A DNA stretch of 56,048 nucleotides from a virus (taxonomy: Duplodnaviria > Caudoviricetes), in the IMG/VR virus record IMGVR_UViG_3300032286_000209, positions 1 to 56,048 of that record, one strand, 5' to 3'. The position numbers and the translations under genes were made by a program. Positions within the stretch are counted from its first letter, which is position 1. Each line of letters begins with the position of its first letter. Positions 12,895-46,633 of the stretch are shown piece by piece. The notes beneath the pieces were generated by a model. It saw nothing but the letters and a program-made list of their open reading frames with translations. It did no database searches and was not told the DNA's origin.

Positions 12895-12901
12895 ATGTAA
12901 A

Positions 12902-18895: not shown

Positions 18896-19384
18896 CTACG
18901 CATTTGTAATGTCTAAATAATCAGCAGCTTTTCTAAGTAAAGCTGCATCATCTTTCAACATTCCAATTGCCCTATTACATTGATTACACAGTAACCCCCG
19001 AACTTTTCCGGTATCATGATTGTGATCTACAGCAAAACTCCATTTTGCCCTGTCCCCTAATACATTGTTTTCTGTAGCCTCACAAATACCACACTTATTG
19101 TTTTGCTTCTTTAACAGAGAGTAATAAATATCCAGATCTATTCCATACCTTGATTTAAGGTTGTTCTTTCTTACACTTAATTTAGAAGAATCTGAATTGT
19201 TTTCTTTCCATTTTTTTCTACTTAAGTCATCACAGTCTTTGCACCTGTAGGATTTACCATCACTTTTATTTTTATAGTTATAAAAAGAATCAAATGATTT
19301 TCTACAACCACAAACGCAGCAGTCTTTTTCCTGCTCTTCTATGTCCTTCTCAATCTGACTTTTTGTACGCTTTAACTTAGGCAT
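18896..19384 (-). CDS. Free-standing endonuclease VII-like (homing) endonuclease
   Basis: CCVC/CKDC Zn finger; QNNKCGIC...VDHNHDTGKVRGLLCNQCNRAIG; more AT-rich than neighbours. Confidence 0.88.
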   Translation of the reverse strand: MPKLKRTKSQIEKDIEEQEKDCCVCGCRKSFDSFYNYKNKSDGKSYRCKDCDDLSRKKWKENNSDSSKLSVRKNNLKSRYGIDLDIYYSLLKKQNNKCGICEATENNVLGDRAKWSFAVDHNHDTGKVRGLLCNQCNRAIGMLKDDAALLRKAADYLDITNA

Positions 19385-24502: not shown

Positions 24503-24840
24503 AGAATGCCACTCAATGCAGCGGCAAATAAAACAAAACCAAATATAGCAATGACAACTTTCAAGAAGTCAAAGAACAGATCTCCACCAGCATCAGTGTC
24601 ATCATAGTTGTCCATACCTTTGTTCCTTTCTCTGATAGCTTGAACAATGCACCCTTGAACACCAACGGCATCATCTGTTGGCGCAACATCTTCTGCTTCG
24701 GCAATCTTGACGCACTCTTCATACACCTGTGAAGCCACCAGCTTAGCAAACTTTTCCTTATCGAAATGTTCGTAGCTTGCGCCCCATCCATACTCCTCTG
24801 TGGTGGTGGCTTGTTCAATTAACTTGTCGATGTTCTTCAT
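24484..24840 (-). CDS. Hypothetical protein with C-terminal TM segment (possibly two fused genes)
   Basis: MKNIDKLIEQA...FDKEKFAKL then MDNYDDTDAGGDLFFDF-TM. Confidence 0.5.
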   Translation of the reverse strand: MKNIDKLIEQATTTEEYGWGASYEHFDKEKFAKLVASQVYEECVKIAEAEDVAPTDDAVGVQGCIVQAIRERNKGMDNYDDTDAGGDLFFDFLKVVIAIFGFVLFAAALSGILWWITI

Positions 24841-25138
24841 GTGCATCACTCCTATCATTGAGCCACCTGCCAAACTTACTTAGCTCTGGCATTGTACGGT
24901 TGAAGTCTTTAGCAGCCTGTATATTTAAACACTTAACACCATGCTCCATGTCTGACAGCAGAGCAGACCAATACTCATCTGCTATTGCTTCGCGCTCAGC
25001 CGCAGCTACCAGCTTCATAAACTTTGAAAGCGGCTCATCAATTAAAAAGTGTGTAGCTTGGATGCATTGAGGCTGATACTTCTGAGAGTCGTGGTCAACG
25101 ATGAAGCCAGCTTGTGCAGCCAGTGCTTGGATGTTCAT
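24815..25138 (-). CDS. Hypothetical protein
   Basis: Start MNIQALAAQAG overlaps the upstream stop; LVAAAEREA motif. Confidence 0.6.
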   Translation of the reverse strand: MNIQALAAQAGFIVDHDSQKYQPQCIQATHFLIDEPLSKFMKLVAAAEREAIADEYWSALLSDMEHGVKCLNIQAAKDFNRTMPELSKFGRWLNDRSDAHEEHRQVN

Positions 25139-25299
25139 TCCGCATCCCTCCATGTCCAGCCCAGCAGCTTGTTTGTGAACCAGCGTTGTATCCATGATGG
25201 CTTGTAAAGCATCGTGAACCGAATGTTTGATGGGCCTTCTGCGTACAGCAGCCAATAGCCCACAGGCTTGGGCGGTTCGTATAGTTTGTAGGTGTTCAT
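25135..25299 (-). CDS. Hypothetical Trp-rich protein (54 aa)
   Basis: Read manually: MNTYKLYEPPKPVGYW...KPSWIQRWFTNKLLGWTWRDAE; ATGA overlaps at both ends. Confidence 0.65.
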   Translation of the reverse strand: MNTYKLYEPPKPVGYWLLYAEGPSNIRFTMLYKPSWIQRWFTNKLLGWTWRDAE

Positions 25300-25520
25300 T
25301 TCTCCCTCGCTTTCAGCATTGCGTCTGCTATTTCGTAAGCAATCTCTGCTTTTGACTGCAAATTGTTATAAGGTTTTGTAATCAAATCACCTATGTTTTG
25401 CATAGCCAGCCCAGCAAAGTGGTCACGCATGGTCATGTCCTTTGCAAAGCCGCCGTTCTTCGTCATCCATGTGATGTGCTTATCGTGTTCTTCCATTTCC
25501 AGTTCGTATGGGCTTCTCAT
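25296..25520 (-). CDS. Hypothetical protein
   Basis: MTMRDHFAGLAMQ...AYEIADAMLKAR motif common in proteobacterial phages. Confidence 0.7.
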   Translation of the reverse strand: MRSPYELEMEEHDKHITWMTKNGGFAKDMTMRDHFAGLAMQNIGDLITKPYNNLQSKAEIAYEIADAMLKAREK

Positions 25521-25522
25521 AA

Positions 25523-25732
25523 TTATTCCTCATCAGGTTTGAATTCTTCAGCGTCCACAGTCCCTGCTGCCTTCAGCACTTGGTAGCGGACAACATCAAT
25601 GCGGCATGTCTTTGGACGCGAGAACAACCCCCACGCCAAAGCGCAATCCGCTATGTCTTCGTAGTTGATACCACCGCCCCACTCGCCGGACTCCCAGCGG
25701 GTCTTAAATTCTTCCTTGGTCATTGCGGTCAT
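25523..25732 (-). CDS. Hypothetical protein
   Basis: MTAMTKEEFKTRW start coupled to the upstream stop. Confidence 0.55.
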   Translation of the reverse strand: MTAMTKEEFKTRWESGEWGGGINYEDIADCALAWGLFSRPKTCRIDVVRYQVLKAAGTVDAEEFKPDEE

Positions 25733-26136
25733 GCTGTCACCTCTACAAATTGTTTCGCCAATGATTCGCATTCGTTAATGCAATACTCTAAAGTCTTGAT
25801 CGTATCGCCCTCAAAAGACATTTCGCGGAGCAGCCCTTTGTCGTATATTTTTTTGTACTCACCCGACATTAGCTCAGGATCTCGTGCGTCACCGAAATGG
25901 GCGCAGTCGTAGCCAAGCCACCACAACCCATCGGATGGGGCTGGATAATCGTGGTTTCCGTTTGCATAAGTCAAGCCGCCATGCACACTAGCAGACACAT
26001 CGTCATACCCTTTGCCATGATGCTCGTGGCTTGATGGCACACCAACATAACCGCAACGATGCCCCGCAGGGTGGACGATGATTGCGGCACGAAAACCTGC
26101 CTCTGTTGTCCAATCTTTCTCAACAATACAACTCAT
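25729..26136 (-). CDS. Conserved phage hypothetical protein
   Basis: GHRCGYVGVP...VHGGLTY...WWLGYDCAH. Confidence 0.75.
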   Translation of the reverse strand: MSCIVEKDWTTEAGFRAAIIVHPAGHRCGYVGVPSSHEHHGKGYDDVSASVHGGLTYANGNHDYPAPSDGLWWLGYDCAHFGDARDPELMSGEYKKIYDKGLLREMSFEGDTIKTLEYCINECESLAKQFVEVTA

Positions 26137-26363
26137 ACTTGCTCCTCTGCTGTTTCAATGGGTGTACACACAAGGTTTGGAAACAGCTCATCGATCTGAC
26201 TCACCATCAGAAAGTCTTTGTCCATCACACCGGGGATAATAAACATTCCGAAGTAGGCATCAAGCCATTTGCATTTCATGTTTCCCACTGGGAAGTCTGC
26301 ATAGAACTCAGCAGTATCAAACCCGTTCTTCTCTGCCCACTTTTGGCATTGATAAAGATTCAT
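26133..26363 (-). CDS. Hypothetical protein
   Basis: Coupled ORF in the track. Confidence 0.55.
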   Translation of the reverse strand: MNLYQCQKWAEKNGFDTAEFYADFPVGNMKCKWLDAYFGMFIIPGVMDKDFLMVSQIDELFPNLVCTPIETAEEQV

Positions 26364-26608
26364 GTTGTTTCCTTCTTAATGTTAGCGGGTAAAAATTCTT
26401 TCTTAATATTGACGGTGATGCATGTGCCTTCAAGAGCATCAATCTCAACTCCAGCTTGCGCTGATTGCTTACGAATAATTAACTTCTGATTCTCCATAGA
26501 CTGCTGACACTGTGCCTCAGTTTGAAAATATACAATTGCTTGCATAAAATTACAGTTTGCATTGATGCATGCCCATAAAACAGGTACAAATACACTAACC
26601 ATAAACAC
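26360..26608 (-). CDS. Hypothetical Cys-containing protein
   Basis: Hydrophobic N-terminus, C-x4-C, F-x-T-x3-C pattern. Confidence 0.55.
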   Translation of the reverse strand: MFMVSVFVPVLWACINANCNFMQAIVYFQTEAQCQQSMENQKLIIRKQSAQAGVEIDALEGTCITVNIKKEFLPANIKKETT

Positions 26609-26738
26609 ATCCTTTAGTAAATAAATGAAAAGCGGAATAGCAGGAGGGCTTAGCTATTATGTACACACAATAGACACACACCGCCTGTATCACCGCCACA
26701 ACTCCCAATAGGTGGAAGAAAGAAAGTATTTTCTCCAT
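26595..26738 (-). CDS. Small membrane protein
   Basis: MEKILSFFHLLGVVAVIQAVCVYCVYII hydrophobic stretch; SD GGGAAGG. Confidence 0.5.
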   Translation of the reverse strand: MEKILSFFHLLGVVAVIQAVCVYCVYIIAKPSCYSAFHLFTKGCVYG

Positions 26739-26748
26739 CACCTTCCCT

Positions 26749-26919
26749 TTATTCTTCTTCAACATCTGCAAGCAGATCAAACTTAATAATCTCAAGCACT
26801 CCAATAACCGCAGCCACCGTAACCTTGCCTGAATATTTTTCAATAGCATCTAGTATGTCATCCTGAAGTTGGTGTATTGTATTTGTTCCCTGTTTAAAAC
26901 CGCCTTCAATTACTTCCAT
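26749..26919 (-). CDS. Hypothetical protein (56 aa)
   Basis: Read manually: MEVIEGGFKQ...AAVIGVLEIIKFDLL; SD AGGAG. Confidence 0.6.
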   Translation of the reverse strand: MEVIEGGFKQGTNTIHQLQDDILDAIEKYSGKVTVAAVIGVLEIIKFDLLADVEEE

Positions 26920-26934
26920 ATCATCTCCTGTTGG

Positions 26935-28035
26935 TTAAACAAATCCTCGCATTCTCGCCGCCACTGTAGCACCCTTGAGTGTGTGCTTCATGTAGGGAGC
27001 AACGCTCTGTGGTGTGGCATGGCCTGTCATAGCCATGATGTTAGGCAGAGGCACTTCTGCCTCTATCATCTCAGTAACTGCTGTCCTTCGCAGATCCATG
27101 AGCAGGATGGCTTTGGGTATGCCAGCCCTCTTCATTATTCTACTGCCAATTCTAGCCAGTGAGTTAGCACTGTACGGAAGTAGCCCACCCTTCTGATCTC
27201 TGATGGTGCTGGGTGCTATGTACTGCTGCCACCCAAAGTCTTTGTGCTGCTGCTCCAGCATCTCCCGCAGGTTCTCAGATGTAGGCAAGGACACACTAGC
27301 CCCTCGCTTACTCTGCTCAAGGGACAGTGTACCTGTGCCACTGTCGTAGTTGCTCCACTTGAGCAGCCTGACATCACCTAGCCGCTGTCCCCACTCATAT
27401 GCCATCTGCACTATGAGTCCTACATTACGCAGCCTGAACTCGCTGTATGCCACCGTCAGGAACGCAGCCACATGTTCCTTCTCCCACACCACCTTGCGCT
27501 GCTTATCTGCTCGTCTAAGTATGTGTGTGAATGGGTTGTGTGTGGTGTATCCATTGCGGATGGCGTGATTGAACAGCAGCTTGTACACAGCTAGGCTGTG
27601 GTTGGCTAGGCTCACACTGCTGGTGGCATGGGTGTCATAGATACGCTGACACATAGGGGTTAGGATGTCGCCCAGCTTAGCCTTAGCTAGGGGTACACCA
27701 CCCACCCTATCATTCAGCCAGCGAGACAGATAGTAGTCGTAGTCTGATCGCGTCTTATACTCAAGCTTCTGAAAGCCTAAACTATCTCTGTAATTTATTA
27801 GCAGATCAGTTACAGTGGATGTGCTAGATAAATTTTTAAGACGCTTACGCTCTCCGCGCCACTCATCCAAGATTTTATTCTGCTCATCAGCATACTTGTA
27901 AGCAATTTTCCAATTGTTACCCAGCGATTTACTCTCCACCACCCCTGCCTGAATAGCAGAAGATGGTGGATTATATCGATAGATAACACCAGTTGGTTTA
28001 ACTTCTCGCATTAGGTAGCGGGGAAGATTACTCAC
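26935..28035 (-). CDS. Tyrosine recombinase / integrase
   Basis: WGQRLGDVRLL (R), EQSKRG (K), DLRRTA, TGH...V..Y catalytic set; N-terminal Arm-like YRYNPP. Confidence 0.88.
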   Translation of the reverse strand: MSNLPRYLMREVKPTGVIYRYNPPSSAIQAGVVESKSLGNNWKIAYKYADEQNKILDEWRGERKRLKNLSSTSTVTDLLINYRDSLGFQKLEYKTRSDYDYYLSRWLNDRVGGVPLAKAKLGDILTPMCQRIYDTHATSSVSLANHSLAVYKLLFNHAIRNGYTTHNPFTHILRRADKQRKVVWEKEHVAAFLTVAYSEFRLRNVGLIVQMAYEWGQRLGDVRLLKWSNYDSGTGTLSLEQSKRGASVSLPTSENLREMLEQQHKDFGWQQYIAPSTIRDQKGGLLPYSANSLARIGSRIMKRAGIPKAILLMDLRRTAVTEMIEAEVPLPNIMAMTGHATPQSVAPYMKHTLKGATVAARMRGFV

Positions 28036-28909
28036 CTACAATCTCCTCTGTCATAGGCTCAGGAATCCGAACAGTTCCCATGTCATACAGCTTCTCAGCC
28101 ATGTCCAGCAACTCATCCCGTTTAGCCAGTGCCTTTAGCCACCGCTTAGGGATGTCCTTGTAGCCATACATAGCACCAGCCATCATGCCTGTCACTGCAC
28201 CTACAGTGTCTGCATCATAGCCCTTGTTCACAGCATGCACCACAGCATCCTCAAAGCATGTGTTCATGTAGCATGATTGGGACGCTTGAACATAAGCATG
28301 CATGATGGTTCCGCTGTTGTCTCTGCCGCTGCTACGGATGTTGAAGCTGCGAAGTTTGTTGTAGTTGGTGAACATCTTACCAGCCATACATTCAGCAATG
28401 AAAGCTGCTGTGTACCGGACAACATCAGGACTACCATGAGTCATCAGCGACACAGCAACACCCTCAGCAATAGCCATCCCCACAGTGTCGTGGTTGGCTA
28501 GCATGATGGGGGCCAGCCGCATGATGGAGCCGTTTCCGCTGGCTCTCAGGTCTGCACTGGCAGCATAGGGAAACTCAGATGTCATCCGGTCAATAGCACC
28601 GGAGCAGGTACGGCCTATGTCAAAGACATAATCTCTTGTGCCGAAGTGTCCGCTCTTTTTCCATGTCTTGAAGTTGTTGACAATCTCAGCAGGATCGAAG
28701 CAGCGGCTGGTGATGTAGGCTTGAGCAATGCAGGTACTCATAGCACCATCATCGCTGTATTCTCCAACTTCCATGCTATGCACACCACCACCTGTCATCT
28801 CGCTATGTACACCTTTTATCTCATGTGGACGAAGAAATTCTAAGGGGGCTCCTAAAGCGTCCCCGATATATAAGCCCATAAACATTCCAATTGCTTTATC
28901 TTTTTGCAT
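28028..28909 (-). CDS. ADP-ribosylglycohydrolase (DraG/ARH family)
   Basis: GDALGAP, YSDD, FDIGRT, GNGSIMRLAP, TH, GYDADTVGAVTG...GA.YG. Confidence 0.93.
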   Translation of the reverse strand: MQKDKAIGMFMGLYIGDALGAPLEFLRPHEIKGVHSEMTGGGVHSMEVGEYSDDGAMSTCIAQAYITSRCFDPAEIVNNFKTWKKSGHFGTRDYVFDIGRTCSGAIDRMTSEFPYAASADLRASGNGSIMRLAPIMLANHDTVGMAIAEGVAVSLMTHGSPDVVRYTAAFIAECMAGKMFTNYNKLRSFNIRSSGRDNSGTIMHAYVQASQSCYMNTCFEDAVVHAVNKGYDADTVGAVTGMMAGAMYGYKDIPKRWLKALAKRDELLDMAEKLYDMGTVRIPEPMTEEIVGE

Positions 28910-28932
28910 TGTGTTCCTTTAAAACAGATTCT

Positions 28933-29130
28933 TTAGTCAGCATTAACTTTCAAGTGAGTTAGATAGCCCCGAAGACGGGTGATCTGTGCTGTGCGGTAGA
29001 CGATGATGGAGTCAGCGTATTCCGCTGCTGTCTCTGCCTCAAGCAGGGAAAGCTCAGCCTCTGCTAGCTCAGCACTCACCGATTCCAGCACAGTGATTTG
29101 TTTAAATATTTTGCGAATGAATTGATGCAT
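28933..29130 (-). CDS. Hypothetical protein
   Basis: ELAEAELSLLEAETAAEYA...ITRLR; start MHQF with SD AGGA. Confidence 0.65.
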   Translation of the reverse strand: MHQFIRKIFKQITVLESVSAELAEAELSLLEAETAAEYADSIIVYRTAQITRLRGYLTHLKVNAD

Positions 29131-29222
29131 GATGTGTTTCCTGAAATAAAAGAGAGGAAACCATGCCATAAGAGTCGATAGCTATCGCCATTCTCTTTGA
29201 TGACACGGCCTCCTGAAAAGGT

Positions 29223-29403
29223 GGAGGAAAGCTACGCTGGGTTGACCCTTTAAATCAGGTGGCAACCAAGACCACTACGCCAGCTACCGACTGACCGCCG
29301 CTCCGCAGTCCCTTGTATCGGCAGCTTCCCTCCGAAAGGTGGGGTACTCACCACGCTGGTTGATCTGTGCTAGTAACGGCGCACTCCAGCATAGCTTTCC
29401 CCC
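29223..29403 (-). ncRNA. Candidate structured non-coding RNA (two domains with an alternative long-range pairing)
   Basis: Multiple GC-rich stems with G-U pairs on the minus strand; 18-bp terminal inverted repeat; GAA/AGUA loop-E-like internal loop. Confidence 0.55.
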
Positions 29404-29419
29404 GAAACCTGCCTAAAAA

Positions 29420-30358
29420 TTAGGCAACTGCTGTCTCGGCAACATCCCAACCGTAGGGGATAGTCTCCTCTACCCAAGCACCACAGTAGTCTTCAGCCAT
29501 TGTCCACAACTCGCTGTTGACACGGATCCCCTCAGACACACTGCTGATGGGACGGGCTTTACGCATCAGTCCACCATTGTTGGCGTTGGCCTTGGTGACA
29601 CTACGAACAAACGCATTGCCCCGCACCACCGCTTCCTGAATACGATTGAACACAGTGAATGCATCCATGTAATCGTCTTCGTTACGCTGCACCGTCAGTG
29701 CATCCCGCACCGTCTTCTCTGTGGCATAGGAGCCAAAGGGAACACCATCGGTGGAATAGGGCATGTCTGTGATAACATCATCAAACATTTTCCAGCGGGT
29801 CTGAACACCCTTACGGGCCATCTCCACAGCATCACCGTACATCAGCTTGGTAGAGCGCAGCTTTTCGATACGCTCCATCAGCAGGGGCAGCGAATCAACT
29901 GTGCTAGCCAGCATATCTTCGAAGCCGTTGATGGCCTTAGCATTGTGGTACATACGGGATTGGAACCCGTCACCAGCAACGATGCCGTTGGAGCAGATGA
30001 AGCGGAAGCAGCCAGCAAACAAACGCACACTGCTGGATCCATCATGGCTGTTGTACAGAATAATCTCAGGGCGAACATCACCGATGATGTCCTGAGTGTG
30101 GTAGGTTTTAGCGAAGCTCAGCATGTGGCTGGAGTGCTGTGCCTCACCCTTGCGGCTCTTCTTCTGAGCAGCTTGCATGGGGAAGTAGCCGAAGTCTGCC
30201 AACACAGGTAGCAATTGGGCAGTGTTCAGCGAAGCGTAACGCTCCGACAAACCGTCTGCTTTGGTGCTGCTGAATACAGCGGGAGCCAACTGCTGGATAC
30301 GCTCATTGGTCAGAGCGGTGTTGTTGACATTGCGGGAGAAGATGAGATGCTTTTGCAT
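29420..30358 (-). CDS. DUF932-family protein
   Basis: APAVF...SERY...PEIILYNSHDGSSS...AGCFRFICSNG...FNRIQE. Confidence 0.85.
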   Translation of the reverse strand: MQKHLIFSRNVNNTALTNERIQQLAPAVFSSTKADGLSERYASLNTAQLLPVLADFGYFPMQAAQKKSRKGEAQHSSHMLSFAKTYHTQDIIGDVRPEIILYNSHDGSSSVRLFAGCFRFICSNGIVAGDGFQSRMYHNAKAINGFEDMLASTVDSLPLLMERIEKLRSTKLMYGDAVEMARKGVQTRWKMFDDVITDMPYSTDGVPFGSYATEKTVRDALTVQRNEDDYMDAFTVFNRIQEAVVRGNAFVRSVTKANANNGGLMRKARPISSVSEGIRVNSELWTMAEDYCGAWVEETIPYGWDVAETAVA

Positions 30359-30405
30359 ACGAAAGTTCCTTAAAGGATAGGTTGAACACGAAATAAAGCG
30401 GCGTT

Positions 30406-30433
30406 AATTTACCACTTTCCACAGGGCTGTCAA
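30406..30433 (-). promoter_or_regulatory. Sigma70-like promoter with the -35 inside an inverted repeat
   Basis: TTGACA-16 nt-TAAATT with extended TG; ACAGGG/CCCTGT arms flank the -35. Confidence 0.65.
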
Positions 30434-30454
30434 GTCCCTGTAGAAAATGTCCTA

Positions 30455-30685
30455 CTATTTCGTAGGGCTATTGGCCTTTCTAACCAGCGGTATCACAGGA
30501 GTGAACGCTGCTAGGTGGCACACATCACCAAACATGTTGGTGCAGTAGCTGTACATGCCATCGATGTGATCGAAGCGGTACACATGTCCGGTGCTTGTTG
30601 ATTTGATGTAGCTGTTGTTGGGTAGCTTGTACAGCAACTCCACGGGTAGCTGTTCAAAATCGTTGATGTCTACTTCGCTAATCAT
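30455..30685 (-). CDS. Hypothetical protein
   Basis: MISEVDIND...FDHIDGMYSYC...HLAAFTPV; SD AAGGA. Confidence 0.7.
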   Translation of the reverse strand: MISEVDINDFEQLPVELLYKLPNNSYIKSTSTGHVYRFDHIDGMYSYCTNMFGDVCHLAAFTPVIPLVRKANSPTK

Positions 30686-30686
30686 A

Positions 30687-30854
30687 TTATTCCTTTGTGT
30701 TAAGTTGTTGGTGGTGATGGATGTCGAGCAATAGCTCCTGCTTACCAGCAGCATATCCCCTGTCGTAGTCAGCCTGAGCCAGTGACAAATCACCGAAGTC
30801 TGCTCTCGCTGCTGCCCTGTAGCCACATATAAATCCGTATTCGTAGAATGACAT
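30687..30854 (-). CDS. Hypothetical protein (55 aa)
   Basis: Read manually: MSFYEYGFICGY...YDRGYAAG; SD GAGG. Confidence 0.55.
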   Translation of the reverse strand: MSFYEYGFICGYRAAARADFGDLSLAQADYDRGYAAGKQELLLDIHHHQQLNTKE

Positions 30855-30857
30855 ACA

Positions 30858-31295
30858 TCACCCCTCAAACTGGTATGAGGCCATCAATCGCTTACCTGCC
30901 TTGTTCCTACCCATATCCACTATAGCTCCATCCACTACAGCAAGAGCATGCTTTGTTATCACAACAACATACCGCCCTTTGGGGTGACGCTCAAGGAATG
31001 TCTCCAGTGTCATGCCCTGTGGACGGAATGGAACGCTGTGCTTCTGAGACAGCCGCCGCATTCTCTCACCGTAGTAGGTGACATCGAAAGCACCAGCCAT
31101 CTTGTACACCTTGTCCAGTGCATCCCAAGGTGTGCCTCTGCCCCGTGGCCTACCCTCTTGAGACATGAGACGCAGTGCCACAGGGTAGGGGTAAGCACCT
31201 ACATTGGCAATTGCTCTCACAGCGCAGTCATTCTTTTCGACAATGCCGAAGTCAGCGGGTATGTAACCACCATCTTTGGATACGATGTATTTCAT
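30858..31295 (-). CDS. Putative papain/C39-like peptidase-fold protein
   Basis: NDCAVRA (Cys) ... KHALAVVDG (His/Asp). Confidence 0.5.
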   Translation of the reverse strand: MKYIVSKDGGYIPADFGIVEKNDCAVRAIANVGAYPYPVALRLMSQEGRPRGRGTPWDALDKVYKMAGAFDVTYYGERMRRLSQKHSVPFRPQGMTLETFLERHPKGRYVVVITKHALAVVDGAIVDMGRNKAGKRLMASYQFEG

Positions 31296-31319
31296 ATGTT
31301 TCCTTTCAGGAATGAGAAG

Positions 31320-31589
31320 TTAAACAGTTGGTTGGTAGCTTTCGTAAGACCTAATCTTGCTGGCCTTATCGGTGTGTTTGTAAACAAACTTTATCTTAAC
31401 ATCCCTTTGGTGTAGCTCTTGGCAGAGCAGCCCCAAGTCACAGTCTTCCTCTAGGTACACATTGTCCCGTAGCTGGTAGCTGTAGTCGCTTACACCCTGA
31501 GCCAGCCCTAGGTTGTCTATGACCTGACGCTTCACCTTACCCCATGAGTGTGCTGGGTCTGAGTACATTATGATGGTGAATGTCTTCAT
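31320..31589 (-). CDS. Conserved phage early protein
   Basis: DPAHSW...SDYSY...VYLEEDCD...IRSY. Confidence 0.7.
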   Translation of the reverse strand: MKTFTIIMYSDPAHSWGKVKRQVIDNLGLAQGVSDYSYQLRDNVYLEEDCDLGLLCQELHQRDVKIKFVYKHTDKASKIRSYESYQPTV

Positions 31590-31810
31590 GCATATTCCCC
31601 TGCTGTGTTACGCTTCTTGATGGCCTTGTTGATGGCGGGATATGGAGTAGGCTCCAGCAGCACATCGTATCCCAATCGGGCTATGTTAGCCAGTGCTGCC
31701 ACCGTCAGTGTCTTCGTGCCACAGAGGGCAGCGAAGAGCAGAGCTTTGTCGCAGATCGGGTACGCTGTAGGTACGCCGTAGTTTTCTTTGATGTGAATAG
31801 AAATTTGCAT
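31586..31810 (-). CDS. Conserved phage early protein
   Basis: YGVPTAYPIC..A..FAAL.GTKTLT...LGY. Confidence 0.7.
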   Translation of the reverse strand: MQISIHIKENYGVPTAYPICDKALLFAALCGTKTLTVAALANIARLGYDVLLEPTPYPAINKAIKKRNTAGEYA

Positions 31811-31812
31811 AA

Positions 31813-32196
31813 TTACCACCATGAATAATAAAAAACTGCATCACCATCAAGCAAAGCTTGCTTGGCATCTTCGATAAATTTTTCTGTCTTCTCCACATCC
31901 TCTGAATACATCGTGTCACCACCGAAGAAAAACCCCGGTGTATGTACCAATTGACGCTTGCCCAGTGCATCCTTAAGCCGATCCAAATCAGCCTGTTCCA
32001 GCCTGACATATACACAATTGAATTCGTCAGTGCCACCCTTCTCTTTATAGAGAGCCTCCATCCAACCATGCAGATGATTGAACTTACGCCAATAGGCTAT
32101 CTCAACTCGCTCAATATCATCAGACCAGTCAGCCATAGTTTGGGTGTCGCCAGCCTCTTTCGCTTTCATCTTGAAAGCATACATATCTAAGCCCAT
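31813..32196 (-). CDS. Conserved phage early protein
   Basis: MGLDMY...YWRKFNHLHGW...FNC...GFFFG...YYSWW. Confidence 0.8.
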   Translation of the reverse strand: MGLDMYAFKMKAKEAGDTQTMADWSDDIERVEIAYWRKFNHLHGWMEALYKEKGGTDEFNCVYVRLEQADLDRLKDALGKRQLVHTPGFFFGGDTMYSEDVEKTEKFIEDAKQALLDGDAVFYYSWW

Positions 32197-32197
32197 A

Positions 32198-32440
32198 TCA
32201 GTGTCCTTTCAGGTAGTGTCGTGAATAAACAATATCGCCATCGAATTCTTCCGGTATTACATAGTCTCCGGTGTGGTTGTTGGCATCGATGTAGGCTTCG
32301 ATGTCGGCCTCTAGCATGTGCCTCTTCTCATGTATCACATTAATGATGCACATCTTAGCACCGAAGCCGTGTCCTATGGAGAACTGGCCCATCTCCATCT
32401 CGCCAAACCATACCATCACAGGGGTGTTGTTGTCACTCAT
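32198..32440 (-). CDS. Hypothetical protein
   Basis: Closely spaced ORF in the early operon. Confidence 0.55.
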   Translation of the reverse strand: MSDNNTPVMVWFGEMEMGQFSIGHGFGAKMCIINVIHEKRHMLEADIEAYIDANNHTGDYVIPEEFDGDIVYSRHYLKGH

Positions 32441-32441
32441 G

Positions 32442-32711
32442 TTACATCCTTGTATATGTTAGCTCTTCAGCGGGTTGCAGGGACATCTTATCTTCCATGA
32501 TGTCAAAGAGCAAAGCTTTCGCTTTGTTCAAGGCCCAGCTTGCTCTCTCCACATCATCCCTCGCCATCAATTCCTGAGCATCTGACATCAGAGATGCTAC
32601 CACCATCCCACCACCGCTGAATCGGTAGGTCATGCTGCGCTTTACAGAGGCTTTGAATTCTTCAATGTCGCAGCCATATACTATTCTTGATTTTAAAAGC
32701 TCTTTTTTCAT
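32442..32711 (-). CDS. Hypothetical protein
   Basis: MSDAQE...LNKAK motif; preceded by the repeated SD hairpin. Confidence 0.7.
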   Translation of the reverse strand: MKKELLKSRIVYGCDIEEFKASVKRSMTYRFSGGGMVVASLMSDAQELMARDDVERASWALNKAKALLFDIMEDKMSLQPAEELTYTRM

Positions 32712-32722
32712 GTTGTTTCCTT

Positions 32723-32881
32723 TCAGGAAGTGGTGTGTTGTTCTTCAGACTGCGCCCCAATTGCGTCCAGTACAGAGATTGCGTCTTCAATGGCAGCAAT
32801 GCCATCCTCTTTATTACCTACGGTAAGATCGTAGAGAGCAGCGTGGAGCAATTCCCACACAAGGCTTTCTGAAACTGTCAT
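32723..32881 (-). CDS. Hypothetical protein
   Basis: Start MTVSE after TTCCTAAAGGAAACAAC. Confidence 0.6.
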   Translation of the reverse strand: MTVSESLVWELLHAALYDLTVGNKEDGIAAIEDAISVLDAIGAQSEEQHTTS

Positions 32882-32953
32882 GTTGTTTCCTTTAGGAACG
32901 GTGCAAAATTGCAACCAGTAACAGTCCTGTCACGGCTGTTACAAGGGCAACTC

Positions 32954-33352
32954 TTACAGAGACAGAGAGTAAATGTAGCCCACCTTGATGCCATTGGCAT
33001 TCGGAGCAACCAGCATCGTAGCACTACGGCTCTTCAGCATGGGCAACTCTGTTGCTGAGCTTACAAAGGTGCTGTACTTGTAGGGGTTGTATGTAACCCT
33101 AGTACCCATCGTCACATACCGCTCTATGACAGCCGGTGCAGTGTCCCCTAGCCATGTGCCACAGACACCAGCATGGACATTCTTGCGCTGCTCTCGCAGC
33201 ACTCGCTGCCGCCCTGCCTCGCTCACTTTGTAGGTGCAATCGTATAGCTGCACCTCATGCTTGTGGGCTATCACTCGCCCTTTGTTCACACCCTCAAGGG
33301 CTTTGATAGAGAAGCACCGTAGGTGCAAATTGAAATAAACGAAAACTCGCAT
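32954..33352 (-). CDS. Conserved phage early protein
   Basis: VYFNLH...RQRVLREQRKNVHAG...YNPYK; start MRVF after the SD motif. Confidence 0.75.
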   Translation of the reverse strand: MRVFVYFNLHLRCFSIKALEGVNKGRVIAHKHEVQLYDCTYKVSEAGRQRVLREQRKNVHAGVCGTWLGDTAPAVIERYVTMGTRVTYNPYKYSTFVSSATELPMLKSRSATMLVAPNANGIKVGYIYSLSL

Positions 33353-33363
33353 GTTGTTTCCTT

Positions 33364-33654
33364 TCAGGAATAGTATTGTGCTGACCAATCATCCATAAAT
33401 GCATTCACAGTGTGATCAACCACCGTCTCTTCATCTTCAAGGCCAAAGGCCGACACTCTTACCCATGCCAATCGATAGGTATTCTCAGCGTCTCGAATGT
33501 GGAGATGAAGCTCTGCTTCCTCAACGCTTTCGATGGCCTCTATAATTTCATTATAACCAGCGGACTTAGTTACTGCCCATTCCTCACCGTCAAATACACT
33601 TACAGTGTAGCCCTTAGCTAGGGTATATTTCACTAGGTTTTTGTACGCTTTCAT
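33364..33654 (-). CDS. Hypothetical protein
   Basis: GYTVSVFDGEEW motif; start MKAYK after the SD motif. Confidence 0.7.
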   Translation of the reverse strand: MKAYKNLVKYTLAKGYTVSVFDGEEWAVTKSAGYNEIIEAIESVEEAELHLHIRDAENTYRLAWVRVSAFGLEDEETVVDHTVNAFMDDWSAQYYS

Positions 33655-33909
33655 ATTGTTTCCTTTAGGAAGAAGTCTTTCAGACTGTTTGCTTGATAGA
33701 AGCCCTTTAGCCATGTGCCACAGAGCTTCTGAAAGCACCCACCGTCTAGCACCGACCCCGATGCCACTGTGGATGTCCTATGCATATTATCACCATGATA
33801 TGCTAGCATGGATGTCGGACATTACCCCGCCGACACCTAGACCCAGCCTATTTCAGCTCCGCTGTAGTGTTTGGGAAACACTATGCAAAGCATACTGACA
33901 CTGGAATAA

Positions 33910-33922
33910 ATTTTTAAAGAAC
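33910..33922 (-). promoter_or_regulatory. boxA-like antitermination element
   Basis: Minus strand GTTCTTTAAAAAT, preceded by a hairpin (33929-33962). Confidence 0.5.
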
Positions 33923-34019
33923 CCATCGAGAGAAGCTACGCTTCACAGCGAGGCTAAGCTCTATAGAGAAGATCTGATAACCCTCTGGAAAGCCCCTTAG
34001 GGCTTGCCGCAGTGCTATC

Positions 34020-34772
34020 TCAAGCTGCTATTGCAATCGGTATGACCTTACGGTCAAAGACAAAGCCGCTGTAATCGTTTTTCGCTTTGCCTTTGGCATA
34101 AAGAGCCACCACCACACCCTTATCCTCTAAGTGACGAATGTCACTGTTATCACCGCCAATCACTGGCATGCCCCGATGATTGTCGGGGATCGCTGCTACA
34201 TCACGGAAAACTGTCGCAATTCTCATACCCAATGCCACCGCTTTTTCAACAAAGGGCTGAAAGCCCTGCACCCCGCTGTCACTGAATGTCAGATCGTAAT
34301 TTGACGGAATAACCTTACGGTTAACATCTTTGGTGTAGTCATAGAATTGAACATCGGGGAAAGCAGCAAATATATTTGCATACTCTGTGCCATCGGCATC
34401 AGTAAAACCTACGGTTTCCCACCGAATGTCGGAAGTGCCATTCAACCGGATCAGTGGCACTAAGCTTTGCTTACGGGCTTTCTTTACCAATTTGCAAATA
34501 TCAACAACTAGTTGTTGCATGAAAGTGTTTCGCTCTTCGAAAAACCACACTGTCTTATTGACTCTAGCCTGAGCCACTGAATTCATAGCACCCCGTCCAG
34601 CGGTGAATAGGCATCCATTACCGCACTGTGCAATGCCAGCCATCGAACAAGTATTCCACTTTGTGGAAGTGTGTGGTGCTAGATACAGAATGCCGGTTAA
34701 GAAACCGAAGGTTTCACCCTTAACTGTCTTAGCATCAGAGCCGACAGAAAGCAAAGCTTTAGACTTGAACAT
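34020..34772 (-). CDS. Phage gp88-like protein with Cys cluster (radical-SAM-like)
   Basis: C-x7-C-x3-C, GRG, RLNGTSD, QFYDYTK, YDLTFS, SDIRH, AKG. Confidence 0.75.
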   Translation of the reverse strand: MFKSKALLSVGSDAKTVKGETFGFLTGILYLAPHTSTKWNTCSMAGIAQCGNGCLFTAGRGAMNSVAQARVNKTVWFFEERNTFMQQLVVDICKLVKKARKQSLVPLIRLNGTSDIRWETVGFTDADGTEYANIFAAFPDVQFYDYTKDVNRKVIPSNYDLTFSDSGVQGFQPFVEKAVALGMRIATVFRDVAAIPDNHRGMPVIGGDNSDIRHLEDKGVVVALYAKGKAKNDYSGFVFDRKVIPIAIAA

Positions 34773-34845
34773 ACCGTGTTTCCTTTCAGGAAGTGTGTGG
34801 CAAAATCGCCGTGAGAAACGCTACTATAGCAGATCAATAATGCCC

Positions 34846-35028
34846 TTACCGATTGTAGGTGATTTTGCTTTCAGCCAATGCCACCAAAGGTGTCAGAGCC
34901 AATGCCACTGCACTCATCATCAATAGGCCAGCGCTTTGCTCTGAGCCGTAGAATAACATGCTTGCCACAAAGAACACGAAGGCTTTGAACACCATGTAAA
35001 TCGAAAAACTGTAGTCGGCTTTTCTCAT
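34846..35028 (-). CDS. Small membrane protein, first gene of the early arm
   Basis: MRKADYSF followed by two hydrophobic helices. Confidence 0.55.
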   Translation of the reverse strand: MRKADYSFSIYMVFKAFVFFVASMLFYGSEQSAGLLMMSAVALALTPLVALAESKITYNR

Positions 35029-35030
35029 TT

Positions 35031-35116
35031 TTTGTCTTTCATTTTTTATTAAGAAGAAAGTATTTCCCCTTTTCATACTTAAAAGGGGATACTTTCTTCA
35101 AAAAATGAAAGACAAA
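35031..35116. repeat. Long imperfect hairpin 1 (36 bp, two bulges)
   Basis: 35031-47/35100-16, 35053-63/35089-99 and 35066-73/35081-88 are perfectly complementary. Confidence 0.92.
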
Positions 35117-35140
35117 GATTCGCGGGTGATGCGCGCAGAT

Positions 35141-35210
35141 CTTCCTAACTTAATACAATTCTAGACGCCATCAGAGATGGCATAAGAATTGTCTCAATTA
35201 AGTTAGGAAG
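35141..35210. repeat. Long imperfect hairpin 2 (28 bp)
   Basis: 35141-54/35197-210, 35155-62/35185-92 and 35167-72/35176-81 are complementary. Confidence 0.92.
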
Positions 35211-35272
35211 CCGCACACGAGGCTTTTTAGTGGCTATCAATATCTGCACTTTTTGTTGGCGATCTTTTCTGT

Positions 35273-35292
35273 GGTGGATAAACTGTGGATAA
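35273..35292. promoter_or_regulatory. Tandem DnaA boxes
   Basis: TGTGGATAA (35284-92, exact reverse complement of TTATCCACA) and GGTGGATAA (35273-81, 1 mismatch). Confidence 0.6.
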
Positions 35293-35302
35293 CTTCAAAG
35301 CA

Positions 35303-35379
35303 CTGTCGATTTATACAGCACTGGATAGCACTGGCTTTTTGTACAGCATCGGGGCTGGATAGACTGGGTTTTAGTACAG
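35303..35379. promoter_or_regulatory. Three LexA (SOS)-type boxes, CTG-N10-CAG
   Basis: CTGTcgatttatACAG 35303-18; CTGGctttttgtACAG 35331-46; CTGGgttttagtACAG 35364-79. Confidence 0.7.
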
Positions 35380-35674
35380 TATAGTCTGCCGGTATATTCT
35401 ATATACCGCCTCGCTGATGTCGGGGTAGTGCTTAAAAAAGAGGCAGTTTCCAACAATAGTTTGATTCTGAGCTGATTCCGTATCAGAATGCAGTCTTATG
35501 TAACCCCTTGAATTCATTGAGTATTCAGTATTCAAGGTGAATTCTAATGCATTCAAAAGGATCACCTGACTTCATTGACTTCCAAAAGACAATTAATTCT
35601 GGAGATCTGCACCCCTAGGCGCAGCTATACGCAGCCCTGTGCAGCCCTGCGCGGCGGCGTGTGCGCGGCTAGGT

Positions 35675-35700
35675 GGGGGCGGGCGTGGGCCACCGGGGGG
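35675..35700 (+). other. G-quadruplex-like tract in a GC-rich island (candidate terminus/packaging region)
   Basis: GGGGG-c-GGG-cgt-GGG-ccacc-GGGGGG. Confidence 0.45.
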
Positions 35701-36013
35701 TATGGCGCTATATGTGTATGGCCTAGCACACAGAAGGGGATTTTAAGATTAGCAACTATAGTTGTAGACCTACACAGCCATCCCATCCAAATCAGCTAAA
35801 AACAAGGCACAGGCTACCTAGCCCTTGGCTGTTGGAGAAAGAGGCTGTAAAGACCGATAGAGTGCCTTGCTGAGGAATCGGCAATGGAAAGAGATGCTGA
35901 CAGTGAAAGCACTTCAAACAACGATCTCTTAGTTTCCGGACAATAGGAGGGAATCAGCCTATGCTGCCTAAAAATTAAGCAGATAGCATAGTTGTTGTTT
36001 CTTAACCACATCC

Positions 36014-36042
36014 TTGCACAGCCTGTTGCTTTGTGCTATCAT
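36014..36042 (+). promoter_or_regulatory. Sigma70-like promoter for the late arm
   Basis: TTGCAC-17 nt-TATCAT with extended TG. Confidence 0.5.
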
Positions 36043-36297
36043 CTGTGTCATACCTCTGTCTGTGGGGGGTAGGGGGGCTATGAAGTTCTTCACAGATGCT
36101 GATAGCGTTGTAAGCGTTAATAGCGATAAAGCAGAATTAATCTTCTTACTTTAATTATCTTTATACTCTTTATTCTGGCTATATAGTGGTAATTCCTCTA
36201 TATAGTAGCTGATGTATACTTAAGCTTTAATATATCTAATTTCTCTATATAAGCAACTTCTATGCCACTTAAAGCACTTATGCTATAATTTCACATT

Positions 36298-36588
36298 ATG
36301 AAATCGACAGTGAAAGACTATTCCTTTTTGTTAAAAACAAAAGAACAGCTAGATGCTAAGGGATTGTTATCTTCTCCACCTTATTCCGTGATGTCAGAGA
36401 TCTATATAGCTATGCACAATGATAAACTTGAGACAGTGCATATCCCTCACAGTGATGTTTACTTTGTTAGAACTGCTTTAGAAAAGCGTACAGGTTATTG
36501 GTTCCCTCTTGATGCTGTTGAATATGCAATGAAGCAAGAGGGATGGAATGACAGAAAAGGAACTAGCAGGTTTTCTGTTAGCGAATAG
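36298..36588 (+). CDS. Hypothetical protein, first gene of the late arm
   Basis: HIPHSDVYFVR motif; TGcTATAAT ends 8 nt upstream. Confidence 0.7.
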   Translation: MKSTVKDYSFLLKTKEQLDAKGLLSSPPYSVMSEIYIAMHNDKLETVHIPHSDVYFVRTALEKRTGYWFPLDAVEYAMKQEGWNDRKGTSRFSVSE

Positions 36589-36591
36589 CAA

Positions 36592-36864
36592 ATGCAAATT
36601 AAAAGAGGAACAGAAACATTCAGCGGCTACAACAAGCCTAAGGCTACACCATCGCATCCAACTAAGAGCCATGTTGTGTTGGCTAAAGAAGGGGATAAGG
36701 TTAAGCTTATTCGTTTTGGACAGCAGGGTGTTAAAGGTGCTGGAGCTAATCCAACTACAGAGAAAGACAAAGCCAGACAGAAGAGCTTCAAAGCAAGACA
36801 CGCTAAGGAGATAGCGATAGGTAAGATGTCAGCGGGATACTGGGCTGATAAAGTTAAATGGTGA
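36592..36864 (+). CDS. Conserved small basic phage protein
   Basis: GYNKPKATPSHPTKSH...IRFGQQG...KSFKARH...AGYWA. Confidence 0.75.
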   Translation: MQIKRGTETFSGYNKPKATPSHPTKSHVVLAKEGDKVKLIRFGQQGVKGAGANPTTEKDKARQKSFKARHAKEIAIGKMSAGYWADKVKW

Positions 36865-36896
36865 TATAACTACGAGTAGTTTTTAAAGGAAACAAA

Positions 36897-37169
36897 ATGG
36901 CAACAGCAACACCGGAAGAGAAAGTAGCAATGTACAGAGAGAAGGCTAAAGACAAAGCTTTGCCTCAAGATGTGCGTAATGCTTATTTGGACAAGGCCAC
37001 AGCGCTAGAAGCCAAAGCCTACGAAGAAACCAAAGCCGGTTCTACGAAGTCTAACACCCCTCCTAAATACAATATGGGTGGTGCTGTTAAGAAGCCCATG
37101 ATGTATGCCAAAGGCGGCTATGTCAATTGCGGGGCTTCGGTTCCTCCTGCTCAGAAAGCGAAGAAATAA
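36897..37169 (+). CDS. Small basic protein with two xxxGG tags
   Basis: YNMGGAV, YAKGGYV; SD AAGGA. Confidence 0.7.
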   Translation: MATATPEEKVAMYREKAKDKALPQDVRNAYLDKATALEAKAYEETKAGSTKSNTPPKYNMGGAVKKPMMYAKGGYVNCGASVPPAQKAKK

Positions 37170-37171
37170 TT

Positions 37172-37351
37172 ATGGCAACTAAGACTGTTGCTTTAAATAG
37201 ATCGTTGTATGGATCTAAAGCCTCTGCGCTAAAGCGGGAGAGAAAAGATCAGAAGAGAGACATAGCAATGAATCAAGAATTGTTAGGCATGGCTAAAGGT
37301 GGTGCTGTCAAGAAAAGCGCCAAATCTCCCGCTCCAAAAGGAAAGAAATAA
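37172..37351 (+). CDS. Small basic protein with MAKGG tag
   Basis: MATKTVAL...MAKGGAVKK. Confidence 0.65.
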   Translation: MATKTVALNRSLYGSKASALKRERKDQKRDIAMNQELLGMAKGGAVKKSAKSPAPKGKK

Positions 37352-37352
37352 A

Positions 37353-37610
37353 ATGGCACTCACTAAGAAAATCACTGAAGGCAAAGAAACCTATGCTTCC
37401 AAAGCTGCAATGATGAAGCATGAGAAGAAAGAGCCGATGAAGAAAGAGATGAAAGAAGAGAAGCAAGAGAAGATGATGATGGCTAAGGGTGGTGCTGTCA
37501 AGAAGGGTGCTAAGTCTCCTGCTATTGCTCTCATCATCGGCATGGCTAAGCCCAAAGGTAAAGCTACTATGATGAACAAGGGCGGCATGGCTAAGGGCAA
37601 GAAGTGCTGA
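37353..37610 (+). CDS. Lys/Met-rich small protein with two xxxGG tags
   Basis: YASKAAMMKHEKKE...MAKGGAVKK...MNKGGMAK. Confidence 0.7.
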   Translation: MALTKKITEGKETYASKAAMMKHEKKEPMKKEMKEEKQEKMMMAKGGAVKKGAKSPAIALIIGMAKPKGKATMMNKGGMAKGKKC

Positions 37611-37611
37611 T

Positions 37612-37776
37612 ATGGCTACGAAACTTTCTAAGAAGCAAACTGCTAAAGTGGGTAAAGTGATGGGCGAGTTTAAGGGCAAGTCTTTGCATAGCGGCAAAGG
37701 TGGCCCTGTGGTGAAAAATCCAAAGCAAGCCATTGCCATTGCCCTATCTGAAGCTTCTAAGCTAAAGAAGAAGTAA
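37612..37776 (+). CDS. Small basic protein (DUF6496-like)
   Basis: Read manually: KVGKVMGEFKGKSLHSGKGGPVVKNPKQAIAIALSEA. Confidence 0.75.
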   Translation: MATKLSKKQTAKVGKVMGEFKGKSLHSGKGGPVVKNPKQAIAIALSEASKLKKK

Positions 37777-37779
37777 GCT

Positions 37780-38148
37780 ATGCCGTTAGAGATAGCAACT
37801 AAGTTTAAGACAGAGGGGCAGAGCATCACCGCTACAGCAGCGGGTGCTAGCGCCCAAGTTTTATACACTTGCCCTAATAATTATTCAGGCATTGTTAAGT
37901 TTTTAAACATCTCTGCTGGCACATCAGGCAATAAAAAAATATCTGTTCAGATTTATCACGATGAAACTGCTCAGTACGATTATTTATTGAATACTCATGA
38001 TATGACAGCACATTCTACTTTCAATGTGTTGAGTGGGAATACGTTCTCTCTACATCAAAGAGATAAGATTGTTGCTTTTACAGACACAGCAAATAATTTT
38101 GATATTGTTATATCGGTAGACGAATACTTTGACCCTGTAAGGAAATAA
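37780..38148 (+). CDS. Putative small beta-rich virion protein
   Basis: LYTCP motif, alternating beta-strand pattern. Confidence 0.6.
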   Translation: MPLEIATKFKTEGQSITATAAGASAQVLYTCPNNYSGIVKFLNISAGTSGNKKISVQIYHDETAQYDYLLNTHDMTAHSTFNVLSGNTFSLHQRDKIVAFTDTANNFDIVISVDEYFDPVRK

Positions 38149-46132: not shown

Positions 46133-46633
46133 ATGGATGAAGTAAAGACTTGTCGTGTATGTGGAACATCTAAACCGTGTTCTGATTTTTACAAGAAAAA
46201 AAATGACTGTAAAAAATGTGCAATAGACAGGTCGGCTAGAAATAGTATTTCTTATGTGCCGTTGTACGAAAGAGATATTATTTCTAGGTTCAAGAATCTT
46301 TGCACTAAAGCAAAAGGTAGAGCAAAAGAATTTAGTCTCGTAGATCAAGATTTATTTGATTTATGGGAAAAACAAAACGGTCAATGTGCTTACACTAAAC
46401 TGCCGCTGCTTGCAGCAGCCAACCAGTTTAATACAATGAGTCTTGACAGGGTAGATAGCAGTAAAGGCTATGTTGTTGGTAACATTCAACTAGTCTGTGC
46501 AGCTATCAATAAGATGAAACAAGAGTACACTGAAGAAGTATTCCTTTTGTTTTGTCTGTTAGTAACGCAAAACAGTAAGCTTATAGACTTACCTGATGAT
46601 TTGATAGCCCGACATATTCCTTTGGGCACTTAG
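46133..46633 (+). CDS. Free-standing HNH-like homing endonuclease
   Basis: CRVC/CKKC finger; QNGQCAYT...SLDRVDSSKGYVVGNIQLVC..IN.MK; AT-rich. Confidence 0.85.
   Translation: MDEVKTCRVCGTSKPCSDFYKKKNDCKKCAIDRSARNSISYVPLYERDIISRFKNLCTKAKGRAKEFSLVDQDLFDLWEKQNGQCAYTKLPLLAAANQFNTMSLDRVDSSKGYVVGNIQLVCAAINKMKQEYTEEVFLLFCLLVTQNSKLIDLPDDLIARHIPLGT

Follow-up and report, generated by a model that had tools for sequence, protein, structure and literature searches.

In the gene-free region from which the two arms of what appears to be an uncultured freshwater podophage with a T7-like replisome diverge, we find three LexA-type boxes. They most likely bind a LexA-type repressor, a judgement that takes together our leading reading and a less probable, lysogeny-based version of it. 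According to the leading reading, which we favour tentatively, the boxes are host LexA-type operators set on a DnaA array, and both would jointly gate early transcription or the firing of an origin. The motif itself, its clustering, the selection on the ends of the dyads, the conservation of the DnaA array and the lack of a recognisable phage regulator are direct observations.

Genome organisation and the divergent control region

The window (the whole stretch of DNA analysed) is a complete IMG/VR virus record of 56,048 bp, for which CheckV gives a completeness of 100%. In the ORF map, the last ORF (54108–56048) continues in frame into positions 1–237, which is consistent with a circularly permuted assembly; at the DNA level, the junction of the genome ends is not spanned by any relative. 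The ORF map and the annotation place two diverging arms on either side of a gene-free region (Table 1), within which ORFs are not conserved as ORFs and several ultra-conserved non-coding blocks are found. The cumulative GC skew reaches its minimum at 34–36 kb, which coincides with the strand switch of the genes.

The early arm begins with a small ORF with two transmembrane segments (2-TM), followed by genes for a GP88-like protein, an L5 gp82-like protein, a DUF932 protein, an ADP-ribosylglycohydrolase and the tyrosine integrase. Its replication part comprises a T7-type primase-helicase, PolA, endonuclease VII, a gp2.5-like SSB and an exonuclease, and the arm also carries MazG and a class II ribonucleotide reductase. 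For about half of the ORFs in the early arm, no known family was recognised (PHROGs, Pfam, NCBIfam). Among the lysis genes are the endolysin (GH108 + PG_binding_3) and a lipoprotein-like lysis gene, which probably point to a Gram-negative host. As side observations, genes for tRNA-Arg(TCT) and tRNA-Thr(TGT) lie at 12818–12976, where the two arms converge, and these tRNAs were the sole Rfam matches at gathering score. Three genes of the endonuclease VII / HNH type (18896–19384, 46133–46633 and 16435–16830) are distributed patchily among relatives, a pattern typical of mobile homing endonucleases; the one at 18896–19384 has a match in two distant genomes only.

A blastn search of the phage collection gave no match. 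Among cultured phages, the nearest are the lytic Pelagibacter phages HTVC103P, 104P and 115P, with a PolA identity of only 41%, and this group lacks an integrase according to its describers (bioRxiv 10.1101/2019.12.14.876532). Parts of the control region are present in 20 sequencing runs, mostly freshwater metagenomes, including one RNA run kept as contigs. Within 24000–38000, these RNA contigs cover 36095–36915 and pieces of the early arm but not the boxes; because contigs reveal neither starts nor strand, we conclude nothing from them on transcription of the boxes.

Table 1. Coordinates of the features discussed (strand left empty where none applies; bits refer to the E. coli LexA matrix)
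Feature	Position	Strand	Remarks
Tyrosine recombinase / integrase	26935–28035	minus	Profile matches; core gene of the family
Early/replication arm	35076 down to 13161	minus	From annotation
Divergent non-coding control region	35077–36297		1.2 kb; separates early/replication arm (minus) from packaging/structural arm (plus)
Structural arm	36298 through the end to 12626	plus	Small ORFs, terminase, portal, capsid and tail genes, GH108 + PG_binding_3 endolysin
AT-rich near-perfect palindrome, 86 bp	35031–35116		17-nt perfect arms; head of the early arm
Imperfect palindrome, 70 bp	35141–35210		14-nt perfect arms; between array and early arm; in a family-conserved block
DnaA-box pair	35273–35292	minus	35273–35281 with one mismatch, 35284–35292 perfect; 2 nt between them
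Box 1	35303–35318 (20-mer 35301–35320)		Perfect CTGT-N8-ACAG; 13.5 bits, rank 2 of 56,029
Box 2	35331–35346 (20-mer 35329–35348)		CTGG-N8-ACAG; 11.2 bits, rank 5 of 56,029
Box 3	35364–35379 (20-mer 35362–35381)		CTGG-N8-ACAG; 15.8 bits, rank 1 of 56,029
Degenerate DnaA-box-like 8-mers	35321–35328, 35355–35362		In the spacers ahead of boxes 2 and 3
Palindromic block closing the array	35388–35410		Invariant in the close group; present in nearly all relatives

LexA-type boxes and their conservation

The original prediction, made from the sequence of the window, had described three 16-bp CTG-N10-CAG sites within 77 bp, and they are indeed present, starting at 35303, 35331 and 35364. As it had also stated, box 1 has no mismatch to CTGT-N8-ACAG, a minus-strand TATACT (35383–35378) overlaps box 3, and boxes 2 and 3 are seen to lie inside similar units of about 27 nt. 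Boxes 2 and 3 each have one mismatch to CTGT-N8-ACAG. The repeat tool instead returned the pair formed by units 1 and 2 (35292–35319 vs 35320–35347, 75%). The distance of 275–350 bp given for the first early ORF holds if translation starts at the ATG at 35028, and shrinks to 227–303 bp if the upstream ATG at 35076 is used.

What is unusual about CTG-N10-CAG in this genome is its clustering only. Genome-wide the motif is not enriched, with 20 occurrences observed against 26.1 ± 5.6 expected, and 34 against 31.2 ± 5.1 when one mismatch is allowed. Three boxes within 77 bp were obtained in 0 of 1000 mononucleotide shuffles and two within the same distance in 105 of 1000, in shuffled sequences that hold fewer CTG-N10-CAG overall than the real genome (mean 11.5).

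For scoring, we built a symmetric LexA matrix from 17 E. coli K-12 SOS operators, collected as CTG-N10-CAG matches within 200 nt upstream in 15 E. coli K-12 SOS promoters. The matches at lexA -88, umuD -59 and ruvA -122, which we take not to be known operators, were left out, as was the ssb copy of the uvrA site, and dinG gave no match; the choice of true operators among the pattern matches follows the SOS regulon as we presume it to be composed. In leave-one-out scoring, the E. coli operators range from 1.6 to 26.9 bits (median 19.9, n = 17). Scoring the phage sites with a LexA matrix, which the original prediction had proposed, places the three boxes at ranks 1, 2 and 5 of the genome, at 11.2–15.8 bits against the E. 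coli median of 19.9: of the 17 operators, three score below box 3 and only one below each of the other two boxes. Since the best chance match per shuffled genome reaches 6.8–17.8 bits (20 shuffles), each box taken alone is weak. The resemblance to LexA operators is thus real but modest. The CTGT-N8-ACAG motif is assigned to Beta- and Gammaproteobacteria. Seventeen LexA motifs are known across bacteria (PMC8565304), and the LexA of the host may read a motif other than the E. coli type on which our matrix is based.

Relatives were collected with the GP88-like neighbour protein; a search of IMG/VR gave 221 loci related to it, and we retained 80 of them. The whole control region can be aligned in four relatives at 83–90%, and the others share blocks only. 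With a conserved 31-nt block, which lies about 300 nt right of the boxes, as anchor, we retrieved 12 viral and 20 metagenome loci. One to four boxes stand at the same place in 20 of the 30 distinct anchor-bearing regions (one of them cut by a contig end), nine are without boxes and one is too short. Orthologues of boxes 1, 2 and 3 are all kept in relatives, and the copy number varies by whole units of 21, 28 or 49 nt: one unit lost in this phage is retained by two relatives (L009 and L004), and four others (L108, L110, L116 and L120) carry four perfect CTGT-N8-ACAG boxes each.

The pattern of substitutions within these arrays is informative about what reads them. Boxes were first found by pattern, and we therefore note that the count of variable columns uses the orthologous columns of all sequences, losses included. 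In 11 aligned multi-box arrays, 5 of 24 CTG/CAG columns, 23 of 32 spacer columns and 50 of 120 flanking columns vary; four of the five variable CTG/CAG columns come from L005, a relative in which two units are lost, and the fifth from the unit deletion in this phage. With L005 dropped (10 arrays), the counts become 1/24, 17/32 and 47/120 (Fisher p = 1e-4 and 6e-4). It is therefore the DnaA-like interior that takes up changes, while the ends of the dyad are spared; this speaks for a dyad-reading protein rather than plain weak DnaA boxes.

The degeneracy of the boxes also follows that of E. coli operators. At position 4, the 28 distinct family boxes have T in 20 cases and G in 8, as compared with T 25, G 8 and A 1 among the 34 E. 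coli half-sites, where CTGG is likewise the commonest variant (8/34); the base preceding CTG is A, with G in second place, which again mirrors the E. coli sites. The minus-strand half, a canonical TACTGTA, is the most conserved half, and the other is poorer. With the E. coli matrix, the 28 distinct boxes of relatives score 10.1–18.0 bits (median 14.1). Sites of at least 10 bits number 32 in 81,221 nt of control regions vs 9 in 302,699 nt of adjoining genes, a 13-fold higher density, although counts over relatives are not counts of events because related sequences are not independent. Of 65 distinct regions, 17 contain such sites, among them regions of lineages whose GP88-like protein is no more than 62% identical, and the best score is 21.7 bits; shuffled control regions hold 2.7 ± 1.5 of them, and 0 of 300 shuffles reach 32. 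These comparisons support the view that the sites behave as operators of a dyad-binding protein with LexA-like (CTGT-N8-ACAG) specificity, and the boxes, which are conserved in evolution, are in all probability functional elements.

The DnaA array and neighbouring elements

Ten nucleotides before box 1 ends a pair of DnaA boxes that the earlier reading had missed. Its two boxes share the same orientation at a spacing of 11 nt, and the pair is conserved in all close relatives. Of the 67 distinct 1.3-kb regions upstream in relatives, 39 have a DnaA-box cluster, in arrays of two to six boxes (typically three to six, near-consensus) spaced by 11–12 or 21–22 nt, plus one inverted box. The array always terminates at the same short palindromic block, and in distant relatives the DnaA arrays are followed by a related 'GGATATACC' end. 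CTG-N10-CAG lies within 200 nt of the DnaA array in only 13 of the 67 distinct regions, and most relatives have DnaA boxes but no LexA-like boxes at this place. Because the DnaA array is far more widespread, we regard the LexA-like boxes as a lineage-specific elaboration of its distal part.

DnaA-like 9-mers with at most one mismatch are in excess over the whole genome (24 vs 12.7 ± 3.7 in shuffles), and 23 of the 24 have one and the same orientation relative to the coding strand of their arm, which points to a probable codon effect rather than to binding sites; the case for the intergenic DnaA pair therefore rests on its conservation. The degenerate 8-mers in the spacers ahead of boxes 2 and 3 may be further DnaA sites, and the matching spacers of relatives retain a GGA(T/A)AG core.

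Two AT-rich palindromes lie 60–240 nt to the left of the DnaA boxes (Table 1). The 86-bp palindrome overlaps the upstream ATG of ORF 34846–35076, which sits in its loop, and many distant relatives keep it at about 70% identity even though little of the remaining region is shared with them. In Rfam, the palindromes gave generic hairpin matches only, at E ≤ 1.

Several other elements of the region deserve mention in their own right. Two non-coding G-run blocks (35672–35746 and 36059–36092) are near-invariant across relatives in which their flanks are only 60–70% identical; they share an 11-nt repeat, have no Rfam match and contain no conserved ORF, and could represent an RNA, a packaging site or a genome end. 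Palindromes of the TGAATTCA type are repeated at 35509–35552, about two helical turns apart, and are conserved in all nine aligned relatives, which makes them a candidate second set of operators. ORF 35371–35565 (minus strand), which ends in box 3, was rejected as a gene: both its length (46–104 aa) and its ends differ between relatives, and it has no ATG.

The original prediction had further placed the boxes in front of the early arm, and a role there as a promoter-operator unit was not supported. Scanning with a simple sigma-70 consensus picked out TGGATA-18-TATAGT on the plus strand, which extends across box 3 in this phage but has a -10 element that L008 and L009 do not keep, and the same type of scan found no conserved sigma-70-like promoter overlapping the boxes in relatives. 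The boxes lie 227–350 nt from the first ORF, with the two long palindromes in between. In one distant relative (L052), a perfect TTGACA-17-TATAAT is found at 3925–3953, 48 nt before the GP88-like gene and downstream of the array; from the position of this consensus promoter, early genes may start downstream of array and palindromes.

Competing explanations and known systems

The genome offers no obvious regulator of its own. In agreement with the original prediction, no recognisable CI/Cro pair is present: the ORFs gave no match to CI, Cro, HTH or excisionase families, and a DNA-binding fold or family was recognised in none of them (PHROGs, Pfam, NCBIfam). A six-frame translation of the genome likewise gave no match to the LexA DNA-binding domain PF01726. 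Among the cultured phages, HTVC104P (L157) encodes at 8235–8492 an 85-aa protein that its depositors annotated as a LexA-like repressor and that consists of the N-terminal domain only; this protein, gp32, was considered as a candidate and had no significant match in the present genome or in six relatives (best E 0.42). HTVC104P itself, which has an alphaproteobacterial host, lacks a DnaA cluster as well as any E. coli-type box of more than 11.5 bits, and the ends of its record fall in its divergent inter-arm region.

From the boxes, the integrase and the missing CI, the earlier reading had derived a lysogeny model in which host LexA silences the early operon of an integrated, CI-less prophage until the SOS response releases it, as in GIL01 or CTXphi. 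The tyrosine recombinase was confirmed and is intact, and LexA-dependent temperate phages exist (PMC4551915, PMC6182141). An intact integrase orthologue is, however, kept in 15 of 15 related records (52–96% identity), including 11 in which this place is free of boxes, so that boxes and integrase do not go together. The integrase is a core gene of the family and not a partner of the boxes. It lies within the early operon, where no attachment site is obvious next to it, and could serve integration or the resolution of replication products. A pattern-based scan for integrated copies, which used the GP88-like neighbour and covered one genome per species for 185,579 species, returned no close copy and five distant matches (31–41% identity), all on contigs of metagenome bins, and so pointed to no host. 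Against the model also stand the distance to the first ORF across two palindromes, the lack of conserved promoter overlap, and the fact that no LexA co-factor was found in the phage and neither an attachment site nor an integrated state was seen. An SOS-repressed lysogeny that replaces CI is thus not supported, and we consider this model improbable.

A different protein could also read the dyads, either a phage regulator or initiator that escapes recognition or another host factor, acting together with DnaA in the manner of Rep at iteron origins. Direct repeats of 21, 28 and 49 nt beside DnaA boxes and an AT-rich palindrome recall origins of this type, as does a copy number that shifts by whole units, and in a sister lineage a single box is accompanied by another kind of repeat, whose ACTG/CAGT half-sites are the same but differently spaced. 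With about half of the early ORFs lacking a known family and several small ORFs found in box-bearing genomes only, there would be room for such a protein. Nevertheless, the nearest subclade-specific ORF encodes a 2-TM peptide, no ORF has a recognised DNA-binding fold, the degeneracy of the boxes agrees with LexA operators position by position, and sites of this kind also turn up in lineages in which the neighbouring gene is as little as 62% identical; taken together, we find this explanation somewhat unlikely. Alternatively, the boxes might be low-affinity DnaA sites only, that is, diverged copies of a 21-nt repeat that extend a DnaA oligomer, their LexA resemblance being a by-product. Sister clades do have extra consensus DnaA boxes there at 21–22 nt spacing, a box holds a 9-mer one mismatch from the DnaA consensus in L004, L110, L115, L116 and L120, and the strong DnaA boxes of the family are followed by G, which already gives an ACAG half. 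In this phage, however, the internal 9-mers have at least three mismatches to the DnaA consensus with the CTG/CAG ends still fixed, the interior and not the dyad ends takes the substitutions, and the half that is conserved best, the minus-strand TACTGTA, does not resemble a DnaA site, all of which makes plain DnaA sites quite unlikely. As for a chance cluster without function, single boxes score no better than the best match in a shuffled 56-kb sequence and the motif is not enriched genome-wide, yet the clustering (0/1000), the conservation in 20 of 30 regions and the column-wise constraint stand against it; the conservation data appear already to disfavour chance, which we consider highly improbable.

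We return to the reading that we favour, host LexA-type operators on a DnaA array, for which we infer LexA as the binding protein, the binding of DnaA and the output of the region. The boxes would have been built onto the distal repeats of the conserved DnaA-box array in the 1.2-kb region. In an undamaged host, LexA dimers would occupy the one to four boxes, which adjoin and partly overlap DnaA sites, so that one landing pad would serve two host proteins that report DNA damage and replication status. Loss of LexA, through SOS cleavage or through titration on replicating phage DNA, would alter the access of DnaA and thereby change the output, which could be leftward early transcription or, alternatively, the opening of the adjacent AT-rich palindromes as a DnaA-assisted origin; a T5-like pause is a further possible output. 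This reading is supported by the lack of a phage-encoded DNA-binding candidate, the box-restricted ORFs being a 2-TM peptide and small acidic or coiled-coil proteins. The endolysin is also restricted to box-bearing genomes, a difference that hints at another host for this subclade. Counting against it, most relatives manage without LexA-like boxes, and one half of a box is itself a near DnaA box in many relatives, so that some of the dyad may derive from a DnaA repeat.

The closest parallel that we found is in phage T5 (L156, AY587007.1). Eight conserved DnaA boxes and palindromes have been described in the T5 region (bioRxiv 10.1101/866236); LexA has 0 occurrences in the text of that preprint, whose supplementary files may say more on palindrome D. 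In the literature that we searched, a LexA site is reported neither for the T5 region nor for the present phage group. Scored with our matrix, the annotated palindrome D (9330–9349) reaches 29.2 bits, above every E. coli training site, and lies 10 nt from paired DnaA boxes; an inverted copy at 6135–6154 scores 22.5 bits and is also 10 nt from a DnaA box. The T5 arrangement (IRD'-spacer-IRC' / IRC-spacer-IRD) resembles the present one in its non-coding length of more than 1 kb, its palindromes and repeats, its DnaA boxes paired 2–3 nt apart and its LexA-type dyad 10 nt from a DnaA box. It differs in that its dyad flanks the DnaA pair at the opposite end and that each copy has one near-consensus box, whereas the present family has one to four weaker tandem boxes; the two phages share no sequence similarity and differ in family, replisome and genome layout, and the function of the T5 region as an injection stop signal of T5-like phages is itself only proposed. 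Unrelated phages, namely T5-like siphoviruses that infect enterobacteria and this podophage family, might independently have built a DnaA and LexA landing pad with boxes 10 nt away beside long palindromes, as a host replication and damage checkpoint for an early step of infection; such a pad would pause and release genome entry, early transcription or origin firing. We consider this convergence, and the checkpoint role with it, unlikely.

In E. coli, interleaved LexA and DnaA sites co-regulate the uvrB promoter region (PMC6015884). The uvrB promoter region / DARS1 is similar to the phage region in interleaving both kinds of site in a long intergenic region, and differs in being chromosomal, with mapped promoters and one strong LexA box, and in that the abstract of PMC6015884 describes no phased consensus DnaA array. 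With the E. coli matrix, the uvrB operator scores 23.0 bits.

Iteron origins of plasmids and P1 combine direct repeats at about two helical turns with DnaA boxes and an AT-rich stretch. The phage region shows this combination too, placed where the replication genes begin; in contrast to such origins, no Rep-type initiator is recognised, the T7-like replisome has its own primase-helicase, and the sites are dyads where iterons are asymmetric. CTXphi is a CI-less phage that uses host LexA. Like GIL01, it resembles the present phage in that its control region carries boxes for the LexA of the host while a classical CI is missing. The GIL01 boxes are part of the lysogenic promoter P1 and depend on gp7, a co-factor encoded by the phage (PMC4551915), whereas no promoter overlap, co-factor or prophage state was found for the present phage.

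LexA boxes have so far been known as switches of a few temperate phages. Here, LexA-type boxes appear as a conserved, copy-number-variable extension of a DnaA array in a phage with a T7-like replisome, and a like arrangement is present in the virulent T5. Because CTGT-N8-ACAG is the E. coli motif and other groups differ, the LexA reading predicts a host among the Beta- or Gammaproteobacteria for a family that is abundant in freshwater metagenomes, with 221 relatives in IMG/VR. If it is true that LexA and DnaA share the site, early infection would be coupled in a general way to the damage and replication state of the host, and the 'injection stop' region of T5 would gain a second ligand.
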